Source of the DNA: a virus
Taxonomy: Duplodnaviria; Heunggongvirae; Uroviricota; Caudoviricetes
Strand: one strand, 5' to 3'
Length of the DNA stretch: 35,232 nucleotides
Virus record (IMG/VR): IMGVR_UViG_2541047821_000009
Shown: positions 1-34,042 of the stretch, in pieces
Position numbering within the stretch: the stretch's first letter is position 1
How the letters are laid out: each line of letters begins with the position of its first letter
The notes under the pieces: generated by a model
Seen by the model: only the letters and a program-made list of their open reading frames with translations
What the model was told of the DNA's origin: nothing
Database searches by the model: none
Made by a program: the position numbers and the translations under genes

Positions 1-1011
1 TTATAACGTCACTCCGCCTTTTAGTGGATTCAGAGTGACGGCGTTCTGCAGGTAGTCAGGCGCAAGGTGCGCATAGGTCATTGTCTGCTGAATGCTCGCA
101 TGCCCCAGAATCTGTTGCAGTGCAATTATGTTGCCCCCATTCATCATGAAATGGCTTGCGAATGTATGCCGCAGAATGTGGGTTGCCTGATTGGGAGGTA
201 TATCAGGTTTCACTCTGCGTAAAATCCCGCAAAACTTCTCATAATCTACCTTGAACAATTTGGCGCTGGCCTCCTCTTTAACTTTTTTCTCCAGTTCCTC
301 AGAAATCGGCACTGTTCGCTTTTTACCGTTTTTGGTTTTCAGGAAGGTAACCCTGCAACTTGTAATCTGTGCTGGTTTTAGCGTGGCAACTTCCGTCCAT
401 CTTCCTCCAGTGCTCAGACATAAAAGCGCGACAAGTAAGTCATCACCAGTCAAAACATTTAGCAGTTTTTCGATTTCCGCTTTTTCCAGGAACGTCATTT
501 CAGGGTTAGCCTCCGTCAGTGGCGGCAGTCCGTGAATTGGGTGTTGCCCGGAAAATTCATCCAATTGAATTAATTTTGTGAACATGCCGGATAATCGGTA
601 CATGTCGCGGTTTATCGTTGCAGCACTGATGCCGTCACGTAGTCGCATGGAGCGATAATCCATCAAAGCCCTTTTGTTCATCCGACTCACTGGTATATCA
701 CCTATGCCGCTGATGGTTTTGAGCAGATGATTAAACTCTTTTGTCCCATGCTCGTGGTTTTGCCCGTGGTATTTCCACCAGATGTCGAGCAATTCTGTCA
801 AAGTTCGGCGGTCTGCTCGCTGGCCTCCCCATTCTTTCTGACTGGCATTGGCGATTGTGTATCGCTCAAATGCTAGTGCTTCAGCTTTTCTTTCAAATTT
901 CCTGCGGATGCGTTTTCCGTCGCGACCGCGAGGTCTAATGTCCACTTCATAGCGACCATCATCGAGCTTCTTAATTGCCATAAGAAAGCCCTCCGGCGCT
1001 GTATTCACCAT
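1..1011 (-). CDS. int: Tyrosine recombinase (P2-type integrase)
   Basis: 336-aa ORF; C-terminal box II 'ILRHTFASHF' and catalytic Tyr context 'TMTYAHL'; sits at the prophage end beside the C repressor as in P2; minus-strand stop codon at bases 1-3. Confidence 0.9.
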   Translation of the reverse strand: MVNTAPEGFLMAIKKLDDGRYEVDIRPRGRDGKRIRRKFERKAEALAFERYTIANASQKEWGGQRADRRTLTELLDIWWKYHGQNHEHGTKEFNHLLKTISGIGDIPVSRMNKRALMDYRSMRLRDGISAATINRDMYRLSGMFTKLIQLDEFSGQHPIHGLPPLTEANPEMTFLEKAEIEKLLNVLTGDDLLVALLCLSTGGRWTEVATLKPAQITSCRVTFLKTKNGKKRTVPISEELEKKVKEEASAKLFKVDYEKFCGILRRVKPDIPPNQATHILRHTFASHFMMNGGNIIALQQILGHASIQQTMTYAHLAPDYLQNAVTLNPLKGGVTL

Positions 1012-1925: not shown

Positions 1926-2422
1926 CAGTGATGACGCTCAATCTCGTTGAAAAACAGCCAGCAACTATGCGCCGGATAATTGGTAAGCATCTTGCCGTCC
2001 CTCGCTGGCAGGATACATGTGATTATTATAATCAGATGATGGAGCGCGAACGGCTAACGGTTTGCTTTCATGCACAGTTAAAACAGCGTCACGCAACGAT
2101 GCGTTTTGAAGAAATGAACGACGTCGAACGTGAACGACTGGTTTGTGCAATTGATGAATTGCGTGGGGCATTCTCAAAACGCCGTCAGGTTGGCGCAAGT
2201 GAGTATGCATATATTAGTTTTTTAACAGTCAGTCAGCGCCGTACTTTATTTATGCACGCACGACTGACAGAAAAAGAATTTAACCAGCCATACTGGCGAA
2301 TTAATGAGGAATCATGTTACTGGCGTGATGCTTTATTCCGTGCATTACGTGAATTATTCAGTCTGTTTGAGTATGCACCGACAATTCTGACGTCGGTAAA
2401 ACCAGAGCAATATCTGCATTAA
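1916..2422 (+). CDS. B: Replication protein B (helicase-loader-like)
   Basis: 168 aa versus about 166 aa for P2 B; position after cox/orf78. Confidence 0.7.
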   Translation: MEMTVMTLNLVEKQPATMRRIIGKHLAVPRWQDTCDYYNQMMERERLTVCFHAQLKQRHATMRFEEMNDVERERLVCAIDELRGAFSKRRQVGASEYAYISFLTVSQRRTLFMHARLTEKEFNQPYWRINEESCYWRDALFRALRELFSLFEYAPTILTSVKPEQYLH

Positions 2423-2485
2423 GTAATTAACCAGAGTTTTTAACGCACTTAATTGTGCGGGGCTTCTTTTTGCCTGGAGAAAGTC

Positions 2486-2710
2486 ATGCATACAGTTTCT
2501 GAAAATCAGTGCGGTAAATACGCATTACTGCTGCAACAGGCCAGAACCGAAGCACAGGCCGACGCAGCGACGCGCTTTTCTTCTCATCTTGACGTCATGA
2601 TTCGCCACATCACAAAGGCGGAGTTATCCCGCGTGGAGATAGTCGAGCTGCTCAGTCAGGAGTCGGAAAAATTTCACAACATCGGATTGTCTCGCGGGGA
2701 GGTGCTTTGA
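2486..2710 (+). CDS. Hypothetical early protein (orf80 position)
   Basis: ORF with GGAGAAAG ribosome-binding site before ATG at 2486; stop overlaps the next start. Confidence 0.5.
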
Positions 2711-3012
2711 TGTCCTGTTCTCGTTCAGTTGTTTTACTGAACAATGCCTTAAAAATCGCCGTTATGAAAAATGGCGATTTGTCTCTTATTCAACTTGGTC
2801 TTGATAAAGAAAAACGCGAAATAACTGAATCTGCTATCGCGATTTATCAGAGTGAATTAAACCTCCTGTCTGATGTGGTCAATTTACTTGTTAAACGCGC
2901 TGTATTTCACAAGCAAATTTCCTCCGTGGATGAACTGACAAAATTAACGACAGAAATCGCCAGCTATTGCGCTGATGAATTTAAGAAACTGAACGACAAA
3001 AGGAGCTGGTAA
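2707..3012 (+). CDS. Hypothetical early protein (orf81 position)
   Basis: 101-aa ORF, translationally coupled on both sides (ATGA overlaps). Confidence 0.5.
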
Positions 3013-3236
3013 TGCCGGACAACGTGGATTTTATTCAGGAACAACAGGCTGAATTACTGGAGCGCCAGATTAACGCGGCAAGGGTAAAGCATTGCGGTGC
3101 TTCTGCGCTGGTTTGCGAAGAGTGTGACGCGCCAATACCTGCTGCCCGTCGTGCGGCTTATCCGTCAGCCACGCGTTGTGTTTCCTGTCAGTCAGTCTTT
3201 GAAGCAAAAAACAAACATTACCGGAGAACGGCATGA
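3012..3236 (+). CDS. TraR/DksA-family C4 zinc-finger protein
   Basis: 74 aa; 'CEECDAPIP...CVSCQ' CxxC-N17-CxxC motif; AGGAG ribosome-binding site. Confidence 0.65.
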   Translation: MPDNVDFIQEQQAELLERQINAARVKHCGASALVCEECDAPIPAARRAAYPSATRCVSCQSVFEAKNKHYRRTA

Positions 3237-3511
3237 GTATTCGTATTGAAATTGGCGAACGTTATGTCGTTACCAGTGACAGCTTTCAGTTTATTCTCCA
3301 CGAGAAAAAGAGAGCGGAAAGCGGTAAAAACGCCGGTCAGGAGTGGCTGGCGGTGGTTGGTTATTACCCGAAATTAAGCCAGCTCGTTTCCGGTCTGATG
3401 CATCACGATATTCTGACCGGAAGCGCAAAGTCTTTTGCTGATTTAAACACGCAGGTTGAGCAGCTCAGCAAGCGTTGTTCAGAGGCGTTCTCCAGAGGAG
3501 CGTCTGAATGA
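3233..3511 (+). CDS. Hypothetical early protein (orf83 position)
   Basis: 92-aa ORF, coupled to neighbours. Confidence 0.5.
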   Translation: MSIRIEIGERYVVTSDSFQFILHEKKRAESGKNAGQEWLAVVGYYPKLSQLVSGLMHHDILTGSAKSFADLNTQVEQLSKRCSEAFSRGASE

Positions 3512-4515
3512 TTACTGATGCTCGTTGCCATACTGAAAATACCATCAATGTTATTTTTGTTTCAGGTGGAAAGGACAGCCTTGCTCAGTGGCTTGTCGCT
3601 ATTGAAGAAAATGTACCCATATTGCCGGTTTTTGCTGATACGGGACATGAACATCCACAGACAATGAAATATCTGGATTATCTGGAAAAACGGCTTGGCC
3701 CAATTAAAAGAGTCAGAGCTGATTTTTCCTGCCGGATTGAATCAAAGCGCAAGTTTATCCAGACCAAATGGCCTGATTTGTTGGTTAACGATTGTGGAAT
3801 GTCGGAAGAAGAAGCGCACCAGCGCATCAGTTGTGCGCTGGAAATTCTCAAACCAACGGGTATCCCGTTTCTTGATTTGTGTCTGTGGAAGGGGCGTTTC
3901 CCATCAACCAAAGCCAGATTTTGCACATTTGAACTGAAACATGAACCCGTGCGTTCTCAGGTAATCCTGCCTTTACTCAATGAATTTGAGGAAGTGATTA
4001 GCTGGCAGGGAGTGCGTGCTCAGGAATCGCCATCACGCGCAGCTTTACCTGTCTGGGAAGAGGATGCAGACAACACACCCGGATTGCATGTATATCGCCC
4101 GATTTTGCACTGGAAGCATGAAGATGTATTTGCAATAGCCAGAAGACATGACATTAAGCCAAATCCGTTATATCAGCAGGGGTGTGGCCGTGTTGGTTGT
4201 ATGCCATGTATTCATGTCCGTAAATCTGAACTGGCAGAAATTTTTCGCCGGTGGCCGGAGGAAATAAAGCGGGTTGCTGAATGGGAACGACTGGTTGCGT
4301 CGTGCTCCCGTCGGGGAAATTCCACTTTTTTCCCATCCACACATGATCCGCTACGCGCAGAACGTCGTATTGAGGTTGTAACAGTCGAGGCATACGGAAT
4401 TGAAACCTACCATGACTGGACAATGACAACGCGTGGGGGTACTCAGTTTGATTTACTGGCTTCGGCGAATGATAAAGCCGTTTGCAGTAGTGTCTATGCC
4501 GGTGTATGTGAATGA
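3508..4515 (+). CDS. PAPS-reductase / DndC-like PP-loop ATP pyrophosphatase family protein
   Basis: 335 aa; N-terminal PP-loop 'VIFVSGGKDS' (SGGxDS); C-terminal Cys cluster 'GCGRVGCMPC'; coupled to A (ATGA overlap). Confidence 0.7.
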   Translation: MITDARCHTENTINVIFVSGGKDSLAQWLVAIEENVPILPVFADTGHEHPQTMKYLDYLEKRLGPIKRVRADFSCRIESKRKFIQTKWPDLLVNDCGMSEEEAHQRISCALEILKPTGIPFLDLCLWKGRFPSTKARFCTFELKHEPVRSQVILPLLNEFEEVISWQGVRAQESPSRAALPVWEEDADNTPGLHVYRPILHWKHEDVFAIARRHDIKPNPLYQQGCGRVGCMPCIHVRKSELAEIFRRWPEEIKRVAEWERLVASCSRRGNSTFFPSTHDPLRAERRIEVVTVEAYGIETYHDWTMTTRGGTQFDLLASANDKAVCSSVYAGVCE

Positions 4516-6803
4516 GTCATTCTTTCCAGGAGCAATACACCTGCGTACCTCCGTCAGCATTTGCCGCAGGCACCGGTAAGACGTTTACCGGTGCTTATGC
4601 ATGGAACGCGCCGCGCGAGGCTGTCGGGCGCGAAAGACCTCTTACACGTGACGAGATGCGTCAGGTGCAAGGTGTTTTATCCACGATTAACCGCCTGCCT
4701 TATTTTTTGCGCTCGCTGTTTACTTCACGCTACGACTACATCCGGCGCACTAAAAGCCCGGTGCACGGGTTTTATTTCCTCACATGCACTTTTCAGCGTC
4801 GTTTATGGCCGCGCATTGAGCGCGTGAATCAGCGCCATGAAATGAACACCGACGCGTCGTTGCTGTTTCTGACAGAGCGTGACCATTATGCGCGTCTGCC
4901 GGGGATGAATGACAAGGAGCTGAAAAAGTTTGCCGCCCGTATTTCATCGCAGCTTTTCATGATGTATGAGGAACTCTGCGATGCATGGGTTGATGCCCAT
5001 GGCGAAAAAGAATCGCTGTTTACGGATGAGGCGCAGGCGCATCTGTATGGTCATGTTGCTGGCGCTGCACGTGCTTTCAATATTTCCCCGCTCTACTGGA
5101 AAAAATACCGTAAAGGACAGATGACCACGAGGCAGGCATATTCTGCCATTGCCCGTCTGTTTAATGATGAGTGGTGGACTCATCAGCTTAAAGGACAGCG
5201 TATGCGCTGGCATGAAGCGTTACTGATAGCTGTCGGGGAGGTTAATAAAGACCGCTCACCTTATGCCAGTAAACACGCCATTCGTGATGTGCGTGCACGC
5301 CGCCAGGCAAATCTGGAATTTCTTAAATCGTGTGACCTTGAAAACAGGGAAACCGGCGAGCGCATCGACCTTATCAGTAAGGTGATGGGCAGTATTTCTA
5401 ATCCAGAAATTCGCCGGATGGAGCTGATGAACACCATCGCCGGTATTGAGCGTTACGCCGCCGCAGAGGGTGATGTGGGGATGTTTATCACGTTGACCGC
5501 ACCGTCAAAGTATCACCCGACACGTCAGGTCGGAAAAGGCGAAAGTAAAACCGTTCAGCTTAATCACGGCTGGAACGATGAGGCATTTAATCCAAAGGAT
5601 GCGCAGCGTTATCTCTGCCGTATCTGGAGCCTGATGCGCACGGCATTCAAGGATAATGATTTACAGGCCTACGGTTTGCGTGTCGTCGAGCCACACCATG
5701 ACGGAACGCCACACTGGCATATGATGCTTTTTTGTAATCCACGCCAGCGTAACCAGATTATCGAAATCATGCGTCGCTATGCGCTCAAAGAGGATGGCGA
5801 CGAAAGAGGAGCCGCGCGAAACCGTTTTCAGGCAAAACATCTTAACCGGGGCGGTGCTGCGGGGTATATCGCGAAATACATCTCAAAAAATATCGACGGC
5901 TATGCACTGGATGGGCAGCTCGATAACGATACCGGCAGACCGCTGAAAGATACTGCCGCGGCTGTTACCGCATGGGCGTCAACGTGGCGCATTCCGCAAT
6001 TTAAAACGGTTGGCCTGCCGACAATGGGGGCTTACCGTGAACTACGCAAATTGCCTCGCGGCGTCAGCATTGCTGATGAGTTTGACGAGCGCGTCGAGGC
6101 TGCACGCGCCGCCGCAGACAGTGGTGATTTTGCGTTGTATATCAGCGCGCAGGGTGGGGCAAATGTCCCGCGCGATTGTCAGACTGTCAGGGTCGCCCGT
6201 AGCCCGTCGGATGACGTTAACGAGTACGAGGAAGAAGTCGAGAGAGTGGTCGGCATTTACGCGCCGCATCTCGGCGCGCGTCATATTCATATCACCAGAA
6301 CGACGGACTGGCGCATTGTACCGAAAGTTCCGGTCGTTGAGCCTTTGACTTTAAAAAGCGGCATCGCCGCGCCTCGGAGTCCTGTCAATAACTGTGGAAA
6401 GCTCACTGGTGGTGATACTTCGTTACCGGCTCCCACACCTTCTGAGCACGCCGCAGCAGTGCTTAATCTGGTTGATGACGGTGTTATTGAATGGAATGAA
6501 CCGGAGGTCGTGAGGGCGCTCAGGGGCGCATTAAAACACGACCTGCGAACGCCAAACCGTCAGCAAAGAAACGGAAGCCCGTTAAAACCACATGAAATTG
6601 CACCATCGGCCAGACTGACCCGGTCGGAAAGAATGCAAATTACCCGTATCCGCGTTGACCTTGCTCAGAACGGTATCAGACCGCAGCGATGGGAGCTTGA
6701 GGCGCTGGCGCGTGGCGCGACCGTAAATTATGACGGGAAAAAATTCACGTATCCGGTCGCTGATGAGTGGCCGGGATTCTCAACAGTAATGGAGTGGAAA
6801 TGA
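4512..6803 (+). CDS. A: Rolling-circle replication initiator endonuclease (gpA)
   Basis: 763 aa (P2 A is about 761 aa); HUH-type metal motif 'HHDGTPHWHMMLF' and catalytic Tyr region 'YIAKYISKNIDGY'. Confidence 0.85.
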   Translation: MSHSFQEQYTCVPPSAFAAGTGKTFTGAYAWNAPREAVGRERPLTRDEMRQVQGVLSTINRLPYFLRSLFTSRYDYIRRTKSPVHGFYFLTCTFQRRLWPRIERVNQRHEMNTDASLLFLTERDHYARLPGMNDKELKKFAARISSQLFMMYEELCDAWVDAHGEKESLFTDEAQAHLYGHVAGAARAFNISPLYWKKYRKGQMTTRQAYSAIARLFNDEWWTHQLKGQRMRWHEALLIAVGEVNKDRSPYASKHAIRDVRARRQANLEFLKSCDLENRETGERIDLISKVMGSISNPEIRRMELMNTIAGIERYAAAEGDVGMFITLTAPSKYHPTRQVGKGESKTVQLNHGWNDEAFNPKDAQRYLCRIWSLMRTAFKDNDLQAYGLRVVEPHHDGTPHWHMMLFCNPRQRNQIIEIMRRYALKEDGDERGAARNRFQAKHLNRGGAAGYIAKYISKNIDGYALDGQLDNDTGRPLKDTAAAVTAWASTWRIPQFKTVGLPTMGAYRELRKLPRGVSIADEFDERVEAARAAADSGDFALYISAQGGANVPRDCQTVRVARSPSDDVNEYEEEVERVVGIYAPHLGARHIHITRTTDWRIVPKVPVVEPLTLKSGIAAPRSPVNNCGKLTGGDTSLPAPTPSEHAAAVLNLVDDGVIEWNEPEVVRALRGALKHDLRTPNRQQRNGSPLKPHEIAPSARLTRSERMQITRIRVDLAQNGIRPQRWELEALARGATVNYDGKKFTYPVADEWPGFSTVMEWK

Positions 6804-7255
6804 TGGCAAAAATTCACGAGGTAAAGCTGCACGCTAAATATTTTGACCTTGTGCTGGAAGGAAAGAAACGCGCAGAGTTTCGGAAAAATGACCGTAATTA
6901 TGAGCGCGGGGACACGTTGATTTTGCATGAATGGGTACAGGGTGTGTATACGGGGCGAAAGGTTGAAGCCCGGATAACAGATGTTACTGACCTGTCAGAC
7001 TGGCTGGAAGATTATGTCTTGCTAAGTATTGAGCTGCTTAATACAGGCGCATATGAGACTGTGAACTGGAAAGAACTTAGTGAGCGTGGTCTGGTATTCA
7101 GAATTAATCATGAAATTATGCATCAGCTCGGCCTTGCTGTTATGTATGAACCAGAGACGGGGATGTCTGGCGGGGCAATGGTTGCCACGGATGGAGCATG
7201 GAACTATTCAGATGAACAGATGGAGCGTGCACAGCAAAACGGGTGGCTTGGATAA
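6800..7255 (+). CDS. ASCH (PUA-like) domain protein
   Basis: 'EGKKRAEFR' matches the ASCH G-K-x-x-E-x-R signature; ATG overlaps the A stop; first gene of the accessory locus. Confidence 0.6.
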   Translation: MMAKIHEVKLHAKYFDLVLEGKKRAEFRKNDRNYERGDTLILHEWVQGVYTGRKVEARITDVTDLSDWLEDYVLLSIELLNTGAYETVNWKELSERGLVFRINHEIMHQLGLAVMYEPETGMSGGAMVATDGAWNYSDEQMERAQQNGWLG

Positions 7256-7467
7256 TGCACAGAATACCAGGCGAGATACCGCACCATAAAACTAAAAATA
7301 TCAAGCTGATGGCTATTGTTCACCGTCTACAGCAGATTATGGTCAACGAAAATTTGACGCCTGATGAGCTAGTCGGGTGTGCCGAAATAGTCCGGGATAA
7401 TTACGGGCGACTTAACTATATCGGTATCGGTCAGTCCAGAGTTGCGCCACCACCACGTAGACGATAG
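7255..7467 (+). CDS. Hypothetical small protein
   Basis: ATG overlaps the ASCH stop (TAATG); 70 aa; no recognisable motif. Confidence 0.35.
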   Translation: MHRIPGEIPHHKTKNIKLMAIVHRLQQIMVNENLTPDELVGCAEIVRDNYGRLNYIGIGQSRVAPPPRRR

Positions 7468-7593
7468 AGAACGCCGCCAGTCGTGAAACTTGTTTTCAGG
7501 GCTGGCGGGGTTGAACAACGAGCGAAGCGAGGCGTTAGTTCAATCGATGATCATAAGCTTATGAGTTAAGCCTCGAGATTTTGTAGAAAGGGT

Positions 7594-7601
7594 TGTATAC
7601 T
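7594..7601 (+). promoter_or_regulatory. Candidate extended -10 element (TGTATACT) upstream of the methyltransferase
   Basis: TG-N-TATACT read directly; GGAG ribosome-binding site at 7617-7620 and ATG at 7626. Confidence 0.3.
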
Positions 7602-7625
7602 GGACATCGTATGGATCTGGAGTGA

Positions 7626-8651
7626 ATGATGATTGTAAAGGTGATAGACCTTTTTTGTGGTGCTGGCGGATTAACTCATGGTTTGCAACTCGCAGGTCTT
7701 GATGTCGTTGCTGGTATTGACCTTGAGGGGGAATGTCGATTTCCCTATGAAAAAAACAATAAATCAAAGTTTATTGAGAAAGATATCGCTAAAGTAACCA
7801 AAGAGGAATTACTGAAGCTATATGGTGATGCGTCTATAAAAGTATTGGCTGGATGTGCACCTTGCCAACCTTTTTCAAAATATACTCAAGGAAAAGATAA
7901 AGCGGAAGATAAAAAATGGCCTCTTCTTTATGAGTTCGAGCGTTTAATTCGCGAGGTATCTCCAGAAATTGTAACAATGGAGAACGTGCCTGATGTAACT
8001 AAACATAAAGTTTATAATGACTTTTATTGTTCGTTGTTAGAACTGGGATATTATGTTTGGGCATCAAAGGTTGATTGTGTCGAATATGGAATTCCACAGA
8101 ACCGTTCTCGTCATGTATTGTTAGCCTCAAAGTTGGGGGAGATTGAGTTAGTAAAACGTAATGATGTTATTTTGAAAACTGTTAGGGATGCAATAGGTGG
8201 CCTTCCACCATTAGAAGATGGTCAAACAGATCCAAATGATATATTGCATAGAGCCAGTAAATTAAACTCGATTAATAAAAAAAGAATTATACACTCTATT
8301 CCAGGTGGTACATGGAAGGACTGGCCGGAAGAACTTATTGCTGCTTGTCATATGAAGTCTAGCGGTAAAGGGTATGCTAGCGTATATGGGAGGATGTCTT
8401 GGGATAAGCCAAGCCCGACAATTACAACTCTTTGTTATGGTTTTGGGAATGGTCGTTTTGGCCACCCAGAACAGAACAGAGCTATTTCTCTTAGAGAAGC
8501 GGCTTTGTTGCAAACATTTCCTATGGATTATGTTTTTGTTGAAGAACAAGAAAAGTTTGTTATAAGAAGTATTGGAAAAATGATAGGTAATGCTGTGCCA
8601 GTTGAGTTAGGAAAAGTCATTGGGCAATCAATAAAAAATCATTTGAAATAA
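7626..8651 (+). CDS. DNA (cytosine-5)-methyltransferase
   Basis: Motif I 'LFCGAGG', motif IV 'GCAPCQPFS', motif VI 'TMENVPD', motif VIII 'QNRSRHVLLA', C-terminal 'GNAVPVELG'; AT-rich codon usage unlike the phage backbone. Confidence 0.85.
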   Translation: MMIVKVIDLFCGAGGLTHGLQLAGLDVVAGIDLEGECRFPYEKNNKSKFIEKDIAKVTKEELLKLYGDASIKVLAGCAPCQPFSKYTQGKDKAEDKKWPLLYEFERLIREVSPEIVTMENVPDVTKHKVYNDFYCSLLELGYYVWASKVDCVEYGIPQNRSRHVLLASKLGEIELVKRNDVILKTVRDAIGGLPPLEDGQTDPNDILHRASKLNSINKKRIIHSIPGGTWKDWPEELIAACHMKSSGKGYASVYGRMSWDKPSPTITTLCYGFGNGRFGHPEQNRAISLREAALLQTFPMDYVFVEEQEKFVIRSIGKMIGNAVPVELGKVIGQSIKNHLK

Positions 8652-8655
8652 TAAA

Positions 8656-8680
8656 ATGGCCTGCTTTGCAGGCCTTGTGA
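8656..8680. terminator. Bidirectional intrinsic terminator between convergent genes
   Basis: Hairpin GGCCTGC-ttt-GCAGGCC (8658-8674) flanked by an A-run upstream and a T-rich tract downstream. Confidence 0.55.
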
Positions 8681-9361
8681 TTATTTCTCTAAGTATTCAT
8701 TATTATTTATATAATGTTCTATATTATTCGCGATTGCATCAAGATAGGCTATTACTTCTAATGAAATATTCTCTAAATCCTGATATGAAACATTTTTCCC
8801 AATCTCAGCAAATGATACATTTCCATGAGATAAATCATTGCGATGTTGTTTAACAGTGGCTAACTTTTCACCATGTTTAGTGTGAGTGTAATCAGAATGG
8901 GTTGAAAATCCATATATTTTCGATTTTTCTTTTATTTCCTCTCTATCAATATTGCCTGAAAATATTTTCTTTTTGTTGAATGTACCATAAGAAATACCAC
9001 AGGATATGCCTTTAGTAAGTCCGTTGATTAAATTATCGATGTTAACAGATTCATTTTTTAATCTTTTTAAAATTTCTGATTTTAGGTTTTTTTTAAGTTT
9101 GTCAAACTCTATGTTTCTATCATAAATAGTCTCATGTATAAGGCAGATAGCCTCTCTCATTGTTGATTCAATAAGGTTGTATAATAGTATATATACTGCA
9201 CCCTTTAGAGTTTTTCGTGATTGAGATGTAATGGTGAACTTATGTTCTTTATTATCGGATGATATTAATTCCGCACCAGCATGCTCAATAAATTTTAAAA
9301 GATCTAAATAGGCCAAGATTTCTCCTGACCTTTCGTCAAAATCCTCACGAAAACGATCCAT
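8681..9361 (-). CDS. HEPN-like protein (putative RNase effector), partner of the DUF262 protein
   Basis: 226 aa; C-terminal 'QHRNDLSHG' fits the HEPN R-x(4-6)-H motif; its start is 1 nt from the stop of the upstream DUF262 gene. Confidence 0.5.
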   Translation of the reverse strand: MDRFREDFDERSGEILAYLDLLKFIEHAGAELISSDNKEHKFTITSQSRKTLKGAVYILLYNLIESTMREAICLIHETIYDRNIEFDKLKKNLKSEILKRLKNESVNIDNLINGLTKGISCGISYGTFNKKKIFSGNIDREEIKEKSKIYGFSTHSDYTHTKHGEKLATVKQHRNDLSHGNVSFAEIGKNVSYQDLENISLEVIAYLDAIANNIEHYINNNEYLEK

Positions 9362-9362
9362 G

Positions 9363-10505
9363 TTAATCCTCTAATAGTTTGTCTCGCACATATTCAATTC
9401 GTTCAATTACCTTCACGCGACTATTTGCTCCGTCGGAGGTGGTTAATTGTTTGAATTCTTCTGAGCTTAGCCAATCTAAGTTTTTGGGGACAAGGTTAGG
9501 CTCTAGACGTAATGCGAGTGCAGCACCAACAGCGAGAGATTCAAATCTAACTCGAGGTGTAGATTTTGCAGTGATAGTTTTCTTAAAGCCTGCTGGGAAA
9601 TGGTTTTCAACGAAAGACAGAACATTCGAAAACTCTTCTTTCATTGAGTTTTGTTCAGCTTCATCTATATTACTCTTTTCCTTCATGTAATCATTCAGAA
9701 AATCACGCACGGAATGATCAAATTTCTTATATTTATCTAAGTAGGCAAAGAATCTCAATGTAAATTCTAACCGTTCATCTCGTTTTTCTTTAGCCTCAGA
9801 TAAAGGTGCTAACTCCTTAAATTTAGATATTGTCGAGCATGGCTTAATAACCTGCGTATATAAATTTGTTGAGCCAAGTTCTGAACCTTTACGAACTTCC
9901 ATATCTTTCAATATGTCACTACCAGAGTTAATTCGCTCAAAAAGATCCCTGCGGGTTTCTTCATTGCATTTAGAACTCAACTCTATAACACGCACAGGAA
10001 TTCTCATGAAACGGCGTTGGCGTGATAATGGTAAATCTTGGAATCTGAAACCATTAAGAGAACTTAAAGATTTCAGATCTTGTAAAACTAATTCATTGTG
10101 GATAAACGCATGTATGGTTCTAACACGCTGTGAGCCATCAACAATTTCAATCCGTCCATCTAAATCGGGATCTTCTGAAAAGACATCAGCTGTAAATATA
10201 TATGGTATAGGGAAGCCCAAAATTAAAGACTCTATTAATCTTGATTGTCTCTTTTCATTCCAAACAAAGTCCCTTTGATAATCAGGAACAAAGAGTTCGT
10301 TGGTATCATCCTCTAACCCGTTATGATACTTATTAACTAATAACTCAACAGTAAATTCTTTGGTCTCAAAGTCAACATCCTTTTGCTCTGCGCGAATTTG
10401 CTCTTCAGCCTCTTGTTTTATAACTTCTAGCTGAGCTAGGAGTTCTGCCCTTTTTTTGGCATTATCTTCATGTTCTAGTTGAGATTTTAACCCAATAATA
10501 TCCAT
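9363..10505 (-). CDS. DUF262 (ParB/Srx-like, GmrS-type N-terminal domain) protein
   Basis: 380 aa; 'VPDYQRDFVW' and 'IVDGSQRVRTI' match the DUF262 signatures; no HNH/DUF1524 nuclease domain seen in the C-terminal half. Confidence 0.7.
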   Translation of the reverse strand: MDIIGLKSQLEHEDNAKKRAELLAQLEVIKQEAEEQIRAEQKDVDFETKEFTVELLVNKYHNGLEDDTNELFVPDYQRDFVWNEKRQSRLIESLILGFPIPYIFTADVFSEDPDLDGRIEIVDGSQRVRTIHAFIHNELVLQDLKSLSSLNGFRFQDLPLSRQRRFMRIPVRVIELSSKCNEETRRDLFERINSGSDILKDMEVRKGSELGSTNLYTQVIKPCSTISKFKELAPLSEAKEKRDERLEFTLRFFAYLDKYKKFDHSVRDFLNDYMKEKSNIDEAEQNSMKEEFSNVLSFVENHFPAGFKKTITAKSTPRVRFESLAVGAALALRLEPNLVPKNLDWLSSEEFKQLTTSDGANSRVKVIERIEYVRDKLLED

Positions 10506-10690
10506 ATCCAGATCCCTTAATGATTGTTATAAATGAAAACAGATAGCATACCGCATAGATCAGGAAAAATGCCATCGCATGCATGAATTTGCATGAGAGA
10601 AAGATTACCATTTGGGATTAGCTTTGCCAGTGCTGATGGGTTTTGGATTTTAATCATGTACTGCATCAAAACCGCCTCATGAAGCGGGCG

Positions 10691-10709
10691 GGCGAGGCGG
10701 GGAAAGCAC
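10691..10709. other. cos: cos site (19-nt cohesive-end sequence GGCGAGGCGGGGAAAGCAC)
   Basis: Exact 19-mer read at 10691-10709; matches the P2 cohesive-end sequence as recalled from memory; position immediately upstream of leftward Q is the P2 position. Confidence 0.55.
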
Positions 10710-10878
10710 TGCGCGCTGGCGGTGGTGCTGATTTTATTTTTTCAGCGTCTGAGCGCGTCGTGATGGCGTTTAGATTGTGCGCCGGGGCGTTGGTGTGTCT
10801 GCGGGGTGTTTTGTGCGGTGGTGAGCGTGTGAGGGCGTGATGACGGGGTGTAAAAAAGCCGCCCACAGGCGGCGATGT

Positions 10879-11913
10879 TCAGTCGTTGTCAGTGTCCAGT
10901 GAGTAGTTTTTAAAGCGGATGACTTCCTGACCGAGCCAGCCGTTTATTTCCCGAATCCTGTCCTGTAGCGGGATAAGCTCATTGCGGACAAAGACCTTTG
11001 CCACTTTCTCAATATCACCCAGCGACCCGACGTTCTCCGGCTTGCCGCCCATCAACTGAAAGGGGATGCGGTGCGCGTCCAGCAGGTCTGCGGCACTGGC
11101 TTTTTTGATATTAAAAAAATCGTCCTTCGTTGCCACTTCACTGAGCGGGATAATTTTAATGCCGTCAGCTTTCCCCTGCGGGGCATAGAGAAACAGATTT
11201 TTAAAGTTGTTGCGGCCTTTCGACTTCACCATGTTTTCGCGAAGCATTTCGATATCGTTGCGATCCTGCACGGCATCGGTGACGTACATGATGTATCCGG
11301 CATGTGCGCCATTTTCGTAATATTTGCGGCGGAACAGCGTGGCCGACTCATTCAGCCAGGCAGAATTAAGGGCGCTGAGATATTCCGGCAGGCCGTACAG
11401 CTCCTGATTAATATCCGGCTCCAGCAGGTGAAACACGGAGCCGGGCGCGAAAGGTGTCGGCTCGTTAAAGGACGGCACCCACCAGTAAACATCCTCTTCC
11501 ACACCACGGCGGGTATATTTTGCCGGTGAGGTTTCCAGCCTGATAACTTTACCGGTGGTGCTGTAACGCTTTTCCAGAAACGCATTACCGAACACCAGAA
11601 AATCCAGCACAAAGCGGCTGAAATCCTGCTGGGAAAGCCACGGGTGCGGAATAAACGTTGAAGCCAGAATATTACGTTTGACGTAAATCGGTGAGCTGTG
11701 ATGTACGGCAGCACGCAGGCTTTTTGCCAGACCGGTAAAGCTGACCGGTGGCTCATACCATCTGCCGTTACTGATGCACTCGACGTAATCCAGAATGTCA
11801 CGGCGGTCGAGTACCGGCACCGGCTCACCAAAGGTGAATGCCTCCATTTTCGGGGCCCTGGCGGTCATTGTTTTCACCGCTGGCTGCGGTGTTTTCCCTT
11901 TTTTCTTGCTCAT
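10879..11913 (-). CDS. Q: Portal protein (gpQ)
   Basis: 344 aa, same as P2 Q; next to cos and the terminase gene. Confidence 0.9.
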   Translation of the reverse strand: MSKKKGKTPQPAVKTMTARAPKMEAFTFGEPVPVLDRRDILDYVECISNGRWYEPPVSFTGLAKSLRAAVHHSSPIYVKRNILASTFIPHPWLSQQDFSRFVLDFLVFGNAFLEKRYSTTGKVIRLETSPAKYTRRGVEEDVYWWVPSFNEPTPFAPGSVFHLLEPDINQELYGLPEYLSALNSAWLNESATLFRRKYYENGAHAGYIMYVTDAVQDRNDIEMLRENMVKSKGRNNFKNLFLYAPQGKADGIKIIPLSEVATKDDFFNIKKASAADLLDAHRIPFQLMGGKPENVGSLGDIEKVAKVFVRNELIPLQDRIREINGWLGQEVIRFKNYSLDTDND

Positions 11914-13685
11914 CAGTAAAACTCCAGAATGGTGGATGTCAGCGGGGTGCTGATACCGGCGGTGAGTGGCTCATTTAACAGGGCGTGCATGGTCGCCCAG
12001 GCGAGGTCGGCGTGGCTGGCTTCCTCGCTGCGGCTGGCCTCATAGGTGGCGCTGCGTCCGCTGCTGGTCATGGTCTTGCGGATAGCCATAAACGAGCTGG
12101 TGATGTCGGTGGCGCTGACGTCATATTCCAGACAGCCACGGCGGATAACGTCTTTTGCCTTGAGCACCATTGCGGTTTTCATTTCCGGCGTGTAGCGGAT
12201 ATCGCGCGCGGCAGGATAGAACGAGCGCACGAGCTGGAACACGCCGACACCGAGGCCGGTGGCATCAATACCGATGTATTCGACGTTGTATTTTTCGGTG
12301 AGTTTGCGGATGGATTCAGCCTGGGTGGCAAAGTCCATGCCTTTCCACTGGTGACGCTCAAGTATTCTGAATTTGCCACCGGCCACCACCGGCGGTGCCA
12401 GTACCACGCATCCGGCGCTGTCGCCACGGTGTGACGGGTCGTAACCAATCCATACCGGGCGGGAGCCGAACGGATTGGCGGCAAACGGCGCATAGTCTTC
12501 CCATTCTTCCAGCGTGTCGACCATGCAGCGTTGCAGCTCCTCGAACGGGAACACCGACGCCTTGTCGTCAACAAATTCACACATGAACAGGTTTTTAAAA
12601 TCGTCGGCGCTGTTTTCACGTTTGAGCTGCTCAATGTCGAACAGCGTGCAGCCACCTTTCAGGGCGTCCTCAATGGTGACAATCTGCCGCCACTGGCCGT
12701 CCGCACAGAGAAGACCTCCGGCAAGGGCGTTATGACTGACGTCGATTTCCACGCGTTCGGCGGCGCTGGCGCGTCCCCGGTTGAACAGTTCACCCGACCA
12801 GAACGGGTAGGCGTCGTGCGCCAGCGTGGACGGGGTGGAGAAATAGGTCGAGCGCAGGTGACTCTGTGAGGCCATACCTGATGCCACCTTACGCAGTACC
12901 TGAAAATTCGGGATCCAGAAAATCTCGTCGACGTACAGGTCGCCGTTATGGCTCTGTGCGGTGTTGGAGTTGGTGCCGAGAAAAATCAGTTTTGCGCCGT
13001 TATTGCCCAGGACAATCGGGTCACCGGTCAGGTCAACGTCAACCAGCCGGGCAAAGGCGATGATGTATTCACGGAACACATACGCCTGCGTTTTACTGGC
13101 CGACAGAAAAATCTGGTTATGGCCGGTTTTCAGGGCGCGCAGCAGCGCCTCGCGGGAAAAATAAAACGTTGCGCCAATCTGGCGGGATTTCAGGATATCG
13201 CGGATGCGGTGCTCAAGCCCGGCGCGATACCAGTGCAACTGATAGTCGAAAGACTGCTCAAAGAAAATCTGCTCCAGCTTTTCGATGGCCTCGTCACTGA
13301 AAAAATTCTTTTTCGGTTTGCGGCGTTCGCCTTTGTTGCGGTTAGCGACGTTCGGATTAAGGTCTGCCTCGTTGCCGGTCTGGCTGTAGCGGTTGACCCG
13401 TGCCAGTCGTTCAATCTGGCGTCCGAGCAGGTCAATTTCCTTGAAGTCACCGCCGGTTTTCTGCGGTTTGATGATGAGCTGGGTCAGCCGCGCTTCCAGA
13501 CTCATTTCGACACGGCTGATGGGGGCAACGCTGTCCCAGCCGTCGCGCTGTTTCCAGCTCTGCACCGTCGGGCGTTTCATCTGCAACATGGCGGCAATCT
13601 GCGGCACGGAAAACCCCTGCCAGTACAGCAGCGCCGCCTGACGACGCGGGTCGTGTAAAAGAGTGGTGTCTGTGGTGATGGTCAT
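11913..13685 (-). CDS. P: Terminase large subunit (gpP)
   Basis: Start at internal Met (MTITTDTT...) gives 590 aa as in P2 P; N-terminal HTH-like region. Confidence 0.85.
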   Translation of the reverse strand: MTITTDTTLLHDPRRQAALLYWQGFSVPQIAAMLQMKRPTVQSWKQRDGWDSVAPISRVEMSLEARLTQLIIKPQKTGGDFKEIDLLGRQIERLARVNRYSQTGNEADLNPNVANRNKGERRKPKKNFFSDEAIEKLEQIFFEQSFDYQLHWYRAGLEHRIRDILKSRQIGATFYFSREALLRALKTGHNQIFLSASKTQAYVFREYIIAFARLVDVDLTGDPIVLGNNGAKLIFLGTNSNTAQSHNGDLYVDEIFWIPNFQVLRKVASGMASQSHLRSTYFSTPSTLAHDAYPFWSGELFNRGRASAAERVEIDVSHNALAGGLLCADGQWRQIVTIEDALKGGCTLFDIEQLKRENSADDFKNLFMCEFVDDKASVFPFEELQRCMVDTLEEWEDYAPFAANPFGSRPVWIGYDPSHRGDSAGCVVLAPPVVAGGKFRILERHQWKGMDFATQAESIRKLTEKYNVEYIGIDATGLGVGVFQLVRSFYPAARDIRYTPEMKTAMVLKAKDVIRRGCLEYDVSATDITSSFMAIRKTMTSSGRSATYEASRSEEASHADLAWATMHALLNEPLTAGISTPLTSTILEFY

Positions 13686-13858
13686 GAATACCTCGCCGTG
13701 ATGAATACACGGCAAGGCTACTGAGTCGCGCCCCGCGATTCGCTAAGGTGCTGTTGTGTCAGTGATAAGCCATCCGGGACTGATGGCGGAGGATGCGCAT
13801 CGTCGGGAAACTGATGCCGACATGTGACTCCTCTAATCACTATTCAGGACTCCTGACA
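13686..13858. promoter_or_regulatory. Divergent late-promoter region between P (leftward) and O (rightward)
   Basis: Only non-coding gap between the divergent P and O operons; by analogy with P2 it should hold Ogr-dependent late promoters; I could not confidently identify the TGT-N12-ACA activator site by eye. Confidence 0.3.
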
Positions 13859-25308: not shown

Positions 25309-25836
25309 ATGCAGCATTTAAAAAATATTACGGCGGGTAATCCAAAAACGGTTGAACAATATCAATTGACAAAAGACTTTGATGTTGTCTGGTTTTTTTC
25401 AGAAGATGGTAAGAACTGGTACGAAGAACAAAAGTATTTTGCTGATGACACGCTAAAAATAGCGTACGACAAAGATAATATCATCCGCTATGTGGAAAAG
25501 GATGTGACAGCTATCAGACCGGATGGATTAAGTGTTGTTGAAGTGGCGGATATTACTGCTAACCGACGGGCGGACATTTCAGGGAACTGGATGTTTAAGG
25601 ACGGCAAAGTGATTAAACGCATTTATACGGCAGAGGAATTGCTGCAGCAGGCAGAAAACCGGAAAGCCAGACTTCTTGCAGATGCTGAATCCGTGATTTT
25701 GCCGCTGGAGCGCGCGGTCAGACTGAACATGGCAACAGATGAGGAGCGTAGCCGACTGGATGCATGGGAGCGTTACAGCGTTCTGGTCAGTCGTGTGGAT
25801 CCTGCAAATCCTGAATGGCCGGAAATGCCGCAATAA
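25309..25836 (+). CDS. G: Tail fibre assembly chaperone (gpG)
   Basis: 175 aa as in P2 G; immediately after H. Confidence 0.75.
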
Positions 25837-26057
25837 GTTGTATGATCTCTGGAGTGAGCAAACATATCTATGGCACAGAGTAAAGCCTAATCTGACAGGC
25901 CGCTCTGTGTCTGGAGTAGATTTTAGTAAAGCATTATTTTATTAGTGCAAATTCTAATCAATACATTTTATGTATATGATATCCTGCAGACTTTAATGAC
26001 TTGGTTTAGGCTAACCAGATAACACTGAAGGAATATTTTTGATAATTAAGGTGCGGT

Positions 26058-26651
26058 ATGTTTACTAAGCGACGATTAAAAAATATTAACTGGGAGGCAA
26101 GTTCAGTGATTCTTGCTATGGTTCTCTTTGTTGGAAATATATTTTATACAAATCATCGTGATGATATAACTATGGAGGCTGAGAGGGACAGTATCAGAAC
26201 AATGTTTGCATATGAAATCGCTAATAACCATCGCGCTCTCACTTTTCTTGATAAAACGAGATATATTGGCTTTGACGAAAATTCGGAGCATTTTGTTGGC
26301 GAGCCTTTTGCCATTAATGTCAAATCATTAGGGGGGCCTCGCTTACAGATTGCATTAAACCAGACTGATAAAGTGTTTAAATCCTACTTCAGCGAATTAA
26401 GTAAGCTTGATAAAGAGGATGTTACTCTTCTTATGGACTATTACCATGAGCAAAGCATCCTGCTGGAGCGTGTAAAATCTACGTTACAGAAGATGAAAAG
26501 TGGTAATGATATTAAAGTTGATATTGATGGTTACTTATTAGAAGAACACTTCATGAATGAGCTTAATCTTTCTAATATTTTGCTTAAACGCTATAGCCAT
26601 TTGTTGTCACAACACGCCAAAGAACATAAAACAAAAGATTTACATAATTGA
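26058..26651 (+). CDS. Membrane-anchored hypothetical protein at the Z/fun-equivalent locus
   Basis: 197 aa; AAGGTG ribosome-binding site; N-terminal transmembrane helix 'SSVILAMVLFVGNIFY'; strongly AT-rich; no recognisable domain. Confidence 0.6.
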   Translation: MFTKRRLKNINWEASSVILAMVLFVGNIFYTNHRDDITMEAERDSIRTMFAYEIANNHRALTFLDKTRYIGFDENSEHFVGEPFAINVKSLGGPRLQIALNQTDKVFKSYFSELSKLDKEDVTLLMDYYHEQSILLERVKSTLQKMKSGNDIKVDIDGYLLEEHFMNELNLSNILLKRYSHLLSQHAKEHKTKDLHN

Positions 26652-26857
26652 TAATCTGCTAATGGTTATTCATGGGGTAACTATGTTTTATATGTAATCC
26701 AACTCAGATGAATTATTGATTCTGGATAATAACCGCAGAGCGGTATATACCATGACAGGCAAATGTCCGCTTCTTGTTCAAAGCAGACCGTCAGATTTGA
26801 TAACTTTTGGGCTATGTAAATTGTCAGTCGGAAAATGAGTGAGTTCAAATCAGGACA

Positions 26858-26884
26858 GGCGGGCGAATTGCCCGCCTTTTCTTT
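26858..26884 (+). terminator. Intrinsic terminator upstream of FI
   Basis: Hairpin GGCGGGC-gaatt-GCCCGCC followed by TTTTCTTTAT. Confidence 0.55.
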
Positions 26885-26980
26885 ATCTGTTGTTTCATCC
26901 ACTGACCAGCCAGGTCAAATAGCGTCTCATGCTCTGCACAACAGAAAATAGTTGCACCCATTAACCACGGAGTTAAACGG

Positions 26981-28171
26981 ATGAGTGACTATCATCATGG
27001 CGTGCAGGTGCTGGAGATTAACGACGGCACCCGCGTCATTTCCACCGTATCCACTGCCATTGTCGGCATGGTCTGCACGGCCAGCGATGCGGATGCGGAA
27101 ACCTTCCCCCTCAATAAACCTGTGCTGATTACCAATGCCCAGAGCGCAATTGCAAAGGCCGGTAAAAAAGGCACGCTGGCGGCATCGTTACAGGCCATCG
27201 CCGACCAGTCAAAACCGGTCACCGTTGTCGTGCGTGTGGAAGACGGCACCGGCGACGACGAAGAAACGAAACTCGCGCAGACCGTTTCCAATATCATCGG
27301 CACCACCGACGAAAACGGTCAGTACACCGGACTGAAAGCCCTGCTGGCGGCGGAGTCGGTAACCGGTGTTAAACCGCGTATTCTCGGCGTGCCGGGACTG
27401 GACACCAAAGAGGTGGCTGTTGCACTGGCATCAGTCTGTCAGAAGCTGCGCGCTTTCGGGTATATCAGCGCATGGGGCTGTAAAACCATTTCCGAGGTGA
27501 AAGCCTACCGTCAGAATTTCAGCCAGCGTGAGCTGATGGTCATCTGGCCGGATTTCCTCGCATGGGATACGGTCACCAGTACCACCGCCACCGCGTATGC
27601 CACCGCCCGTGCGCTGGGTCTGCGTGCTAAAATCGACCAGGTGCAGGGCTGGCATAAAACGCTGTCCAACGTCGGGGTGAACGGTGTTACCGGCATCAGC
27701 GCATCTGTATTCTGGGATTTGCAGGAGTCCGGCACCGATGCTGACCTGCTGAACGAGGCAGGCGTCACTACGCTGATTCGCCGCGACGGTTTCCGCTTCT
27801 GGGGTAACCGTACCTGCTCTGATGACCCGCTTTTCCTCTTTGAAAACTACACCCGCACCGCGCAGGTGCTGGCCGATACGATGGCTGAGGCGCACATGTG
27901 GGCGGTGGACAAGCCCATCACCGCAACGCTGATTCGCGACATCGTTGACGGCATCAATGCCAAATTTCGTGAGCTGAAAACAAACGGCTATATCGTGGAT
28001 GCGACCTGCTGGTTCAGCGAAGAATCCAACGATGCGGAAACCCTTAAGGCCGGAAAACTGTATATCGACTACGACTATACCCCGGTGCCTCCTCTTGAAA
28101 ACCTGACCCTGCGCCAGCGTATTACCGATAAATACCTGGCAAATCTGGTCACCTCGGTTAACAGCAATTAA
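26981..28171 (+). CDS. FI: Tail sheath protein (gpFI)
   Basis: 396 aa as in P2 FI; GGAG ribosome-binding site. Confidence 0.9.
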   Translation: MSDYHHGVQVLEINDGTRVISTVSTAIVGMVCTASDADAETFPLNKPVLITNAQSAIAKAGKKGTLAASLQAIADQSKPVTVVVRVEDGTGDDEETKLAQTVSNIIGTTDENGQYTGLKALLAAESVTGVKPRILGVPGLDTKEVAVALASVCQKLRAFGYISAWGCKTISEVKAYRQNFSQRELMVIWPDFLAWDTVTSTTATAYATARALGLRAKIDQVQGWHKTLSNVGVNGVTGISASVFWDLQESGTDADLLNEAGVTTLIRRDGFRFWGNRTCSDDPLFLFENYTRTAQVLADTMAEAHMWAVDKPITATLIRDIVDGINAKFRELKTNGYIVDATCWFSEESNDAETLKAGKLYIDYDYTPVPPLENLTLRQRITDKYLANLVTSVNSN

Positions 28172-33634: not shown

Positions 33635-34042
33635 TTACTTACCTGTGTAGGTATGAGTTTTGGATAACACCACTGTTTGTGCAGGTTTTTCCATTAACGG
33701 AGCGATTTCATTGCATGTGGTCAATGGGTCTTCAAAGGTATATCCAATAGACTTATATTGGTTAACTATATTGATTTCACTTACATTTTTTAAAAATGAA
33801 GAAGGAGCGTCATGTGTCCAGAGTGGGGTGCATACACCGGACATAATTAAATGATTATAGGCTTCTGATGTGATTTTTTTAGCAGGGAGAACAACGGTAA
33901 GAGAGCTATCTTTTGTTGTGATTTCCAGTGGTTGCCATGGTTTCAGTTGTTTTTGAAGAGTTTTAATGTCATTCGTGTTTGCGTATGCATTGAGTGAAAT
34001 TATTAAGGTGGTTATTGCCATTATTGATTTAAGAGTTGCCAT
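33635..34042 (-). CDS. Secreted hypothetical protein (signal peptide)
   Basis: 135 aa; N-terminal signal peptide 'MATLKSIMAITTLIISLNAYA' with an AYA-N cleavage-like site; strongly AT-rich. Confidence 0.5.
   Translation of the reverse strand: MATLKSIMAITTLIISLNAYANTNDIKTLQKQLKPWQPLEITTKDSSLTVVLPAKKITSEAYNHLIMSGVCTPLWTHDAPSSFLKNVSEINIVNQYKSIGYTFEDPLTTCNEIAPLMEKPAQTVVLSKTHTYTGK

Follow-up and report, generated by a model that had tools for sequence, protein, structure and literature searches.

We have analysed a stretch of 35,232 nucleotides of viral DNA (record IMGVR_UViG_2541047821_000009; the whole stretch is hereafter called the window), which is a complete P2-like (Peduovirus) prophage with 100% identity to the chromosome of Escherichia coli GN04592, and have focused on the interval between its replication gene A and the cos/Q junction. 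This interval is the old/tin slot of phage P2, and the AT-rich block that it holds is a self-contained, horizontally mobile cassette of three genes, which encode a C5-cytosine DNA methyltransferase (MTase), a HEPN protein of the MAE_28990 family and a DUF262 protein. The three genes are inherited together and diverge together, and all of their catalytic motifs are intact. We interpret the trio as a putative restriction-modification-like anti-phage defence that would couple the MTase to the DUF262-HEPN pair, a reading to which we assign a rough probability of 0.55. The interval between A and cos as a whole is a mosaic, in which a common and backbone-like facultative module is combined with this rare AT-rich cassette.

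The cassette occupies the cos-proximal slot of P2

On its left side the slot is anchored by gene A (4512-6803, plus strand; Pfam Phage_GPA, E 1e-123), whose product has 98% amino acid identity to P2 gpA. On its right side the conserved cos flank (10662-10709, plus strand) is 94% identical to P2 cosR and ends with the 19-nucleotide P2 cohesive end GGCGAGGCGGGGAAAGCAC, which is present as a single exact copy at 10691-10709 and had 0 matches in 100 shuffles; the portal gene Q (10879-11913, minus strand), which every matched record annotates as phage portal protein, is the right anchor. The cargo lies between A and cos/Q, which is the position of the P2 hotspot. Homology to P2 covers 1965-3489, 4545-7023 and 10662-10709, and tblastn searches of the whole window with the Old and Tin proteins of P2 detect no homologue of either (best E 0.18-0.31). 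This agrees with a sequence-only reading of the same DNA, which had noted the lack of both genes, had placed five open reading frames (ORFs) between A and cos, all of them present at the stated places, and had regarded the position as one of swappable cargo. Indeed, relatives carry quite different cargo between the same flanks: tin and old in P2, mth with gp96 and gp98 in Wphi, two hypothetical genes in AR_0081, a Dcm-like MTase with paraMORC3 in PhiR44_1 and, in other deposited phages, a cdt toxin, Fic/VbhT, DUF4209 or an exoribonuclease. Odegrip, in 2006, is reportedly also a source for this gpA-gpQ (old/tin) hotspot of P2.

A survey of the gpA-gpQ hotspot, which is directly beside cos, comprises 18,150 loci, on average 3.2 kb long, in 1,650 arrangements (Rousset et al. 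2022, PMC9122126), and the same P2 locus has also been described as a defence hotspot by Vassallo et al. (2022, PMC9519451). The arrangement of the trio is listed in Table S5A of the former (PMC9122126), with an MTase (WP_001697730) whose accession is also found in E. coli JNE120442, and is not among the systems cloned in that work. In a census covering 5426 complete genomes of E. coli, 1684 had the last kilobase of gene A, at 1937 places, and only nine had the trio. The same three cargo genes follow directly after A, with around 91% identity, in JNE120442 and seven further E. coli genomes.

Two of the other cargos also contain a methylase. The gp98 gene of Wphi (locus L002, 8677-9882), which adjoins the phage's own 5-methylcytosine (m5C) methylase gene mth, matches PADLOC PD-Lambda-5_A (3e-24) and PDC-M38A, and the classic cargo of Wphi, too, therefore resembles a defence module with a linked methylase. 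We considered gp96 and gp98 as candidate homologues of DUF262 or HEPN and rejected them, as they are not homologous, the match of gp98 being to PD-Lambda-5_A; the methylase encoded by Wphi mth and the MTase of the window have only 26% identity. In the same slot of PhiR44_1 (locus L094, 3507-6555), an m5C MTase with 56% identity is convergent with a 652-residue protein annotated as paraMORC3, and this pair is another cassette of a methylase and a non-canonical 'restriction' partner.

Boundaries and mobility of the cassette

The sequence-only reading had proposed a single AT-rich accessory island from 6800 to 10650 with five genes. The switch to AT-rich DNA is real, although it occurs at around 7530 and not at 6800, and involves three genes and not five. 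The block from 7526/7540 to 10661 has a guanine-plus-cytosine (GC) content of 35.7%, and the 3.1-kb segment of lowest GC in the 35 kb starts at 7551 with 35.8%, the mean of the sliding windows being 51.1% (standard deviation 5.7). Windowed GC, which the same reading had put forward as a check together with codon usage, and GC at third codon positions (GC3) set the trio genes (GC 30-37.5%, GC3 23-29%) apart from the backbone, with gene A at 53% and Q and P at 52-57% (GC3 63-71%). The two genes next to A, an ASCH gene and a small ORF, have 46.5-47% GC and 46% GC3, which resembles the early region of the phage and is backbone-like, contrary to what the five-gene island implied.

Comparative alignments define the boundaries of the cassette. 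The backbone in common with P2 reaches 7023, whereas that in common with Wphi and E. coli AR_0081 continues through the ASCH gene and the small ORF up to 7540 and then diverges. The homology to JNE120442 extends from 4545 to 6795 and resumes from 7526 to 12000, and a 730-bp block with the ASCH gene and the small ORF is therefore absent in that genome. On the right, the right end of Wphi and the P2 cosR align again from 10662/10663. The variable cargo is thus delimited to around 7526/7540-10661, corresponding to 3.1 kb and three genes. The segment 7526-7625, in which the backbone ends at 7540 and the JNE120442 cassette homology starts at 7526, comprises the left junction and the DNA that precedes the MTase gene. 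At the other end, the segment 10506-10661, in which the core shared with Klebsiella ends at 10575, comprises the upstream DNA of the DUF262-HEPN operon and the right junction. The 15-bp stretch 7526-7540 (AGCGAGGCGTTAGTT; GAAGCGTTAACTCAATC in JNE120442) is at once the end of the Wphi/AR_0081 backbone and the start of the cassette, and this short junction homology may mark the site of cassette exchange.

The alignment to other P2-like prophages evidences that the cassette is mobile as a unit, and places the ASCH module with the Wphi/AR_0081 backbone, so that the proposed island stands only in its right-hand part. A cassette core of 3.0 kb (7566-10575), which includes around 60-70 bp upstream of both transcription units, has around 76% nucleotide identity with prophages of two kinds: P2-like ones of Salmonella, with the trio in the same A-Q slot, and lambdoid ones of Klebsiella, with the trio between the replication genes and the NinG/RusA/Q region. 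More diverged trios are found in the same slot of Peduovirus P24B2 (MTase 71-77%, DUF262 47% and HEPN 29% identical) and in nine Moraxella catarrhalis phages, where they adjoin a CI-like repressor. Other copies adjoin a resolvase (Vibrio) or an XisA/C-type recombinase (Brasilonema), and chromosomes of cyanobacteria, Bacteroidales and acidobacteria also carry the trio. In 36 loci out of 36, the GC content of the module (33-41%) is below that of its flanks, and low GC is therefore a property of the cassette and not of this prophage.

In Brasilonema bromeliae (locus L007/L080, 4910-9362) the trio lies beside the XisA/XisC-type recombinase among nitrogenase-family genes, and may be the cargo of a developmentally excised element of this heterocystous cyanobacterium. 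Among Salmonella and Klebsiella variants (L102, 6933-7973; L103, 2793-4550; L098, 6346-6828) we have observed an insertion sequence element between HEPN and MTase, a reverse transcriptase gene in the P2 slot beside the trio, and an N-terminally truncated HEPN.

The ASCH gene and the small ORF form a separate module

The first of the two genes next to A (6800-7255, plus strand) encodes a protein of 151 residues with an ASCH/DUF3850 domain and a C-terminal DUF7415 domain (Pfam DUF3850 7e-18, DUF7415 3e-14, ASCH 1e-10), whose residues 1-75 are 97% identical to P2 orf91. The second is an ORF of 74 residues with a GTG start (7243-7467, plus strand), which is kept beside the ASCH gene in AR_0081/Wphi-type relatives up to 7540. 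The ASCH protein has no PADLOC or NCBIfam match, and the small ORF none in Pfam, PADLOC or NCBIfam. The ASCH gene is itself mosaic, as it is here fused to DUF7415 and P2 orf91 has only the first 75 residues in common with it; in Wphi (locus L002, 5801-6316) small indels divide the corresponding sequence into gp91 and gp92, and the mosaic gene was also compared at locus L093 (3817-4146).

These two genes are an independent, facultative and backbone-like module, separate from the AT-rich cassette. The view that all five genes, from ASCH to DUF262, are one AT-rich accessory island gained together draws on their common location between A and cos, on the fact that the hotspot locus of Rousset et al. 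is everything from gpA to gpQ, DUF3850/ASCH included, and on the ASCH block being itself facultative, as it occurs in around 21% of E. coli P2-like loci. That block, however, has 47% GC, compared with 36% for the trio, contains an ASCH domain that is P2 orf91, and is around 97% identical to Wphi-type relatives. In fact, it is found at 405 places in 395 of the 1684 E. coli genomes with this gene A, mostly with 95-99% identity and paired with many different downstream genes, and it is missing from the eight other E. coli prophages with the same trio and from every further trio locus, those of Salmonella and Klebsiella included. A joint gain of the five genes is accordingly given hardly any probability, the single-island version being refuted by the comparative alignments.

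Anatomy of the three genes

The MTase gene (7626-8651, plus strand) matches Pfam DNA_methylase (1e-57) and TIGR00675 dcm (8e-37), and its translation contains the motifs FCGAGG, PCQ, ENV, QNRSR and GNAVP (motifs I, IV, VI, VIII and X), so that the enzyme looks active. As for its target, relatives in the PDB (HaeIII, HhaI and DNMT1) match the catalytic core only, and the best PADLOC model is the DrmMII/Type II MTase family, which has no stated specificity. The gene is convergent with the other two, and between the two convergent stop codons lies a bidirectional terminator-like hairpin (GGCCTGC-TTT-GCAGGCC, 8658-8674), which is perfect, has seven stem pairs, six of them G-C, and scores on both strands in a terminator scan.

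The HEPN gene (8681-9361, minus strand) encodes a predicted ribonuclease effector that matches the Pfam HEPN_RiboL-PSP and MAE_28990 families, with a profile match above the MAE_28990 threshold. HEPN proteins of characterised families cleave RNA. The Rx4H motif is present as RNDLSH, and residues R174, N175 and H179 do not vary among 20 homologues, the most distant of which has 32% identity. The protein has no PADLOC or NCBIfam match, and no PADLOC 2.0 model fits it; a sequence search of solved structures returned no relative of the HEPN family and, for DUF262, only a marginal match to BrxU (E 0.33).

The DUF262 (ParB/GmrSD_N) gene (9363-10505, minus strand; 380 residues) encodes a predicted nucleoside triphosphate (NTP)-dependent DNA sensor, in which the motifs QRDFVW, DGSQR and FERIN are kept. 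Its stop codon is separated from the HEPN start by 1 nucleotide, as in a two-gene operon. The best PADLOC match is NsnA (3e-55, over residues 25-374 of 380), above PD-T4-2_A (PDLC04027; E 7e-35, residues 73-372), and Pfam detects GmrSD_N only, with no nuclease domain. From the full-length alignment with NsnA, the protein would therefore consist of a ParB-DUF262 NTPase domain and, in its C-terminal half, a DNA-binding 'ParBDB' domain, as described by Li et al. (2025). Its structural model has BrxU and SspE as best matches, the one to BrxU covering 161 residues.

Linkage of the methyltransferase with the DUF262-HEPN pair

An alignment of HEPN homologues was scanned against 185,579 species genomes and yielded 456 relatives, of which 80 loci, mostly cyanobacterial, were examined; together with loci from an exact protein look-up these make a set of 83. 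DUF262 is directly upstream of HEPN in all 83, and in 42 the pair has beside it an orthologous m5C MTase with 53-58% identity to that of the window, usually in convergent orientation and with a gap of around 3 nucleotides. The lineages with the MTase are Enterobacterales, Vibrionaceae, Methylococcales, Cellvibrionaceae, Pseudoalteromonas, Bacteroidales, the acidobacterial Pyrinomonadales and a second cyanobacterial clade, and in the DUF262 tree the loci without it are essentially one cyanobacterial clade of 31, the exceptions being two contig ends and loci L021 and L026. Among 40 complete trios from several phyla the pairwise identity matrices of the three proteins are strongly correlated, with Mantel r of 0.96 for DUF262-MTase, 0.85 for DUF262-HEPN and 0.87 for HEPN-MTase (p<=5e-4 for all).

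In m5C enzymes the target-recognition domain lies between motifs VIII and IX. This is the best-conserved part of the MTase (residues 221-300, column consensus 0.82-0.91), which suggests, as far as can be judged from sequence, that one methylation specificity is kept across the family.

These data bear on the alternative that the trio consists of independent modules merely travelling together, namely a PD-T4-2-like, Type IV-like pair directed at phages with modified cytosines, and an orphan phage m5C MTase with an anti-restriction or epigenetic role. The alternative stays alive because the pair does occur without a dedicated MTase. The 31 cyanobacterial loci, a sister clade, carry it alone among housekeeping genes, and when loci without the MTase were searched for another methylase, nine of ten neighbour genes were housekeeping or unrelated and one was an N6_N4 MTase. 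In L021 and L026, whose MTase has disappeared or survives only in part, both DUF262 and HEPN keep intact motifs, unlike what would be expected if restriction strictly killed in the absence of modification. Also, PD-T4-2, a two-gene system of DUF262 and HEPN with validated anti-T4 activity in its native E. coli ECOR65, has no adjacent methylase (PMC9519451). Because of this clade and of PD-T4-2, the pair is not intrinsically MTase-requiring. Lone methylases are moreover frequent in P2-like phages (mth in Wphi, Dam in Salmonella P2-likes), the DUF262 enzymes GmrSD and BrxU attack modified DNA, and Table S6 of Rousset et al. labels a locus with DUF262, DUF262/DndB and HEPN_MAE_28990 as 'Type-IV restriction'. 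Yet the convergent MTase lies around 3 nucleotides from the pair, the same orthologue is retained across phyla, its presence follows the DUF262 tree, its Mantel correlation with DUF262 is above that of HEPN, its recognition region is highly conserved, and the cassette moves as a single 3.0-kb unit between unrelated phage families. A Type IV-like system reading methyl-cytosine would, in addition, risk self-attack beside an m5C methylase. We consider the independence of the two parts unlikely, and favour the coupled defence.

Some loci may show decay of single genes. In P24B2 (locus L091, 2021-3041) the methylase is frameshifted near residue 227 with DUF262 and HEPN intact; we have set this case aside as a test of whether the pair tolerates MTase loss, as it is indistinguishable from a sequencing error. 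In the clade without MTase, several DUF262 genes (loci L038, L072, L073, L081, L089 and L090, mainly Microcoleus and other Oscillatoriales) are shortened to around 180-265 residues, and the HEPN genes beside them keep an RNDLAH motif; this may correspond to decay of the sensor.

Predicted function of the trio

The coupled defence reading is preferred because of the linkage data together with three lines from the literature. The DUF262 domains of GmrSD, BrxU, SspE and probably Dazbog recognise modified DNA (PMC10952713, PMC12065111), PD-T4-2 is active against T4, and Anantharaman et al. (2013, PMC3710099) had predicted that MAE_28990 HEPN genes share operons with genes for a ParB nuclease and for a DNA methylase. 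The defence slot, the intact motifs and the structural models, of which that of HEPN resembles ribonuclease toxins and that of DUF262 resembles BrxU and SspE, also speak for this reading. In the proposed mechanism, the m5C MTase would mark the DNA of the lysogen and of the prophage itself at one conserved sequence, and the NsnA-like DUF262 protein, with its ParB-fold NTPase and DNA-binding domains, would read the methylation state. Unmarked incoming DNA would lead DUF262 to switch on its operon partner, the HEPN ribonuclease, presumably in a physical complex of the two proteins, and HEPN would then halt the infection in an abortive manner, probably through RNA cleavage. The anti-phage function, the polarity of methyl-mark sensing and the RNA target in this scheme are what we infer from the genes and their relatives. 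A specific version of it, in which the ParB-fold NTPase reads whether one specific m5C mark is present or absent and gates the HEPN ribonuclease, so that the trio would be a restriction-modification system with a 'restriction' arm that is not a deoxyribonuclease, is put forward tentatively, the odds being rather against it. If true, the cell would distinguish self from non-self by an epigenetic mark on DNA and respond with RNA cleavage and abortive infection, and the cassette would do with m5C what Ssp does with phosphorothioate marks. Unrelated temperate phages carry this 3-kb plug-in, and it is found from enterobacteria to cyanobacteria.

A distinct possibility concerns the HEPN protein, whose structural model has as its best matches the ribonuclease toxins of HEPN-MNT toxin-antitoxin systems. 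Gene pairs of the restriction-modification type are selfish, addictive elements. The trio could thus be primarily an addiction module (post-segregational killing or toxin-antitoxin-like) that stabilises the prophage or the cassette, with the HEPN toxin curbed by DUF262, by methylation or by both, and defence as a by-product; the compact and AT-rich nature of the cassette and its presence in many unrelated mobile contexts beside recombinases fit with this. The tested cargo of the gpA-gpQ slot is, however, overwhelmingly anti-phage (PMC9122126, PMC9519451), the closest validated relative defends its native host, and the loss of MTase from an intact pair in L021 and L026 speaks against strong addiction. 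Although the two roles are not mutually exclusive, we regard addiction as the primary one as improbable, and retain anti-phage defence as the best explanation.

Besides the cyanobacterial sister clade, PD-T4-2 itself and loci L021 and L026, some further points weigh against this explanation. Shared host phylogeny may lie behind part of the Mantel correlation; the DUF262 structural model is of moderate confidence only (predicted local distance difference test score of 78, predicted template modelling score of 0.49); and HEPN gives no match to PADLOC PD-T4-2_B even at E<=10. A sigma-70 scan finds promoter-like sites in the cassette no more often than chance (nine against 11.5 expected), and we therefore claim no promoter for it. 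In the literature searched an experimental test of the trio was not found, and a search on genes adjoining MAE_28990 returned nothing.

Other variable loci of the prophage

The remainder of the window follows the plan of a P2-like prophage, with the integrase (1-1011, minus strand), the early genes orf81-83, the terminase gene P (11913-13715, minus strand), the tail genes and the host gene fieF (34312-35232). A third variable locus, independent of the trio and absent in JNE120442, is an insertion relative to P2 between orf83 and A (3490-4544), which contains a gene with a PAPS-reductase domain (3508-4515, plus strand; Pfam 5e-35; PADLOC SspD 3e-21, BrxP 8e-13 and DndC 1e-7). This gene is found in only 44 of the 5426 E. 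coli genomes, and copies with 79% identity are carried by phage P37 of Yersinia and by one Peduovirus; as it has no partner NTPase, phosphorothioation is doubtful.

Two other ORFs without Pfam or PADLOC match stand out by composition. One, of 197 residues (26058-26651, plus strand; 37% GC, within the AT-rich stretch 26001-27000), is flanked by a tail-fibre assembly gene (25309-25836) and by the next tail gene ORF (26981-28171), a site which we take to be the Z/fun position on the P2 map. A second P2 defence hotspot, which holds fun in P2, was described without coordinates by Vassallo et al. (PMC9519451). The other, an orphan ORF of 135 residues (33635-34042, minus strand; 41-42% GC), lies between the end of the phage genes and fieF, and could be either additional cargo near the attachment site or a remnant of host DNA.

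Comparison with known systems

At the level of the locus, the results amount mostly to a clean annotation, with corrected boundaries and a two-module mosaic in the textbook cos-proximal hotspot of P2. The hotspot was already known (Rousset et al. 2022; Vassallo et al. 2022) and the trio has been tabulated twice in the literature. The likeness to the P2 hotspot lies in the site beside cos between A and Q, with conserved flanks and swappable cargo of around 3 kb, and the difference in the absence of old and tin and in a trio which, although catalogued, is not among the hotspot systems that were cloned and tested. The DUF262-HEPN(MAE_28990)-m5C methylase cassette is common in Salmonella and Klebsiella prophages and in cyanobacterial genomes.

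With Type II restriction-modification systems the trio has in common an m5C MTase convergent with 'restriction' genes, a shared terminator, upstream regions of its own, a compact AT-rich mobile unit and co-divergence. We have rejected a canonical Type II system, as no PD-(D/E)xK, HNH, GIY-YIG or PLD domain was found in the cassette, whose sole nuclease-type domain is HEPN; the DUF262 protein matches weakly one PADLOC REase_II model (2.5e-5).

Millman, in 2022, is reportedly also a source for Menshen (NsnABC). NsnA, the proposed sensor of that system (Li et al. 2025, PMC12065111), can be aligned with the DUF262 protein from end to end, but the effector in the cassette is HEPN, a methylase is attached, and neither the ABC-ATPase NsnB nor NsnC (inactive PIN plus nuclease) is present. 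Membership in Menshen was thus rejected, NsnB and NsnC being missing and no ATPase being encoded between A and Q. SspABCD-SspE, GmrSD and BrxU have in common with the trio a DUF262 NTPase domain with QRxxxW, DGxQR and FxxxN motifs, and Ssp also the linkage of a DNA-modification gene to a DUF262 reader. They differ in that the protein studied here has no DUF1524, the modification would be m5C and not phosphorothioate, and the effector is a separate HEPN protein; the missing DUF1524 His-Me nuclease domain led us to reject membership in GmrSD/Type IV. The operon predicted by Anantharaman et al. in 2013 for MAE_28990 is like the present loci, in which ParB/DUF262 (83/83) and a DNA methylase (42/83) adjoin HEPN, but it is a computational note only, in which mechanism, host range and prophage context are not given.

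The closest validated relative of the trio is PD-T4-2. Both have DUF262 and HEPN genes, the PD-T4-2_A model matches the DUF262 protein of the cassette, and HHpred relates PD-T4-2B to the same two HEPN families of Pfam (PMC9519451). PD-T4-2 differs in having no methylase, whereas an orthologous m5C MTase belongs to the cassette, in that its two ORFs span only 1.54 kb, from which its HEPN is shorter, and in its PD-T4-2_B model, which does not recognise the HEPN protein of the cassette. The linkage of the three genes, the conserved recognition region of the MTase, the methylase-less sister clade and the occurrence of the same MTase family with paraMORC3 thus lead to a testable hypothesis on how DUF262-HEPN systems like PD-T4-2 tell self from non-self, for which the E. 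coli strain and its phages are experimentally tractable.

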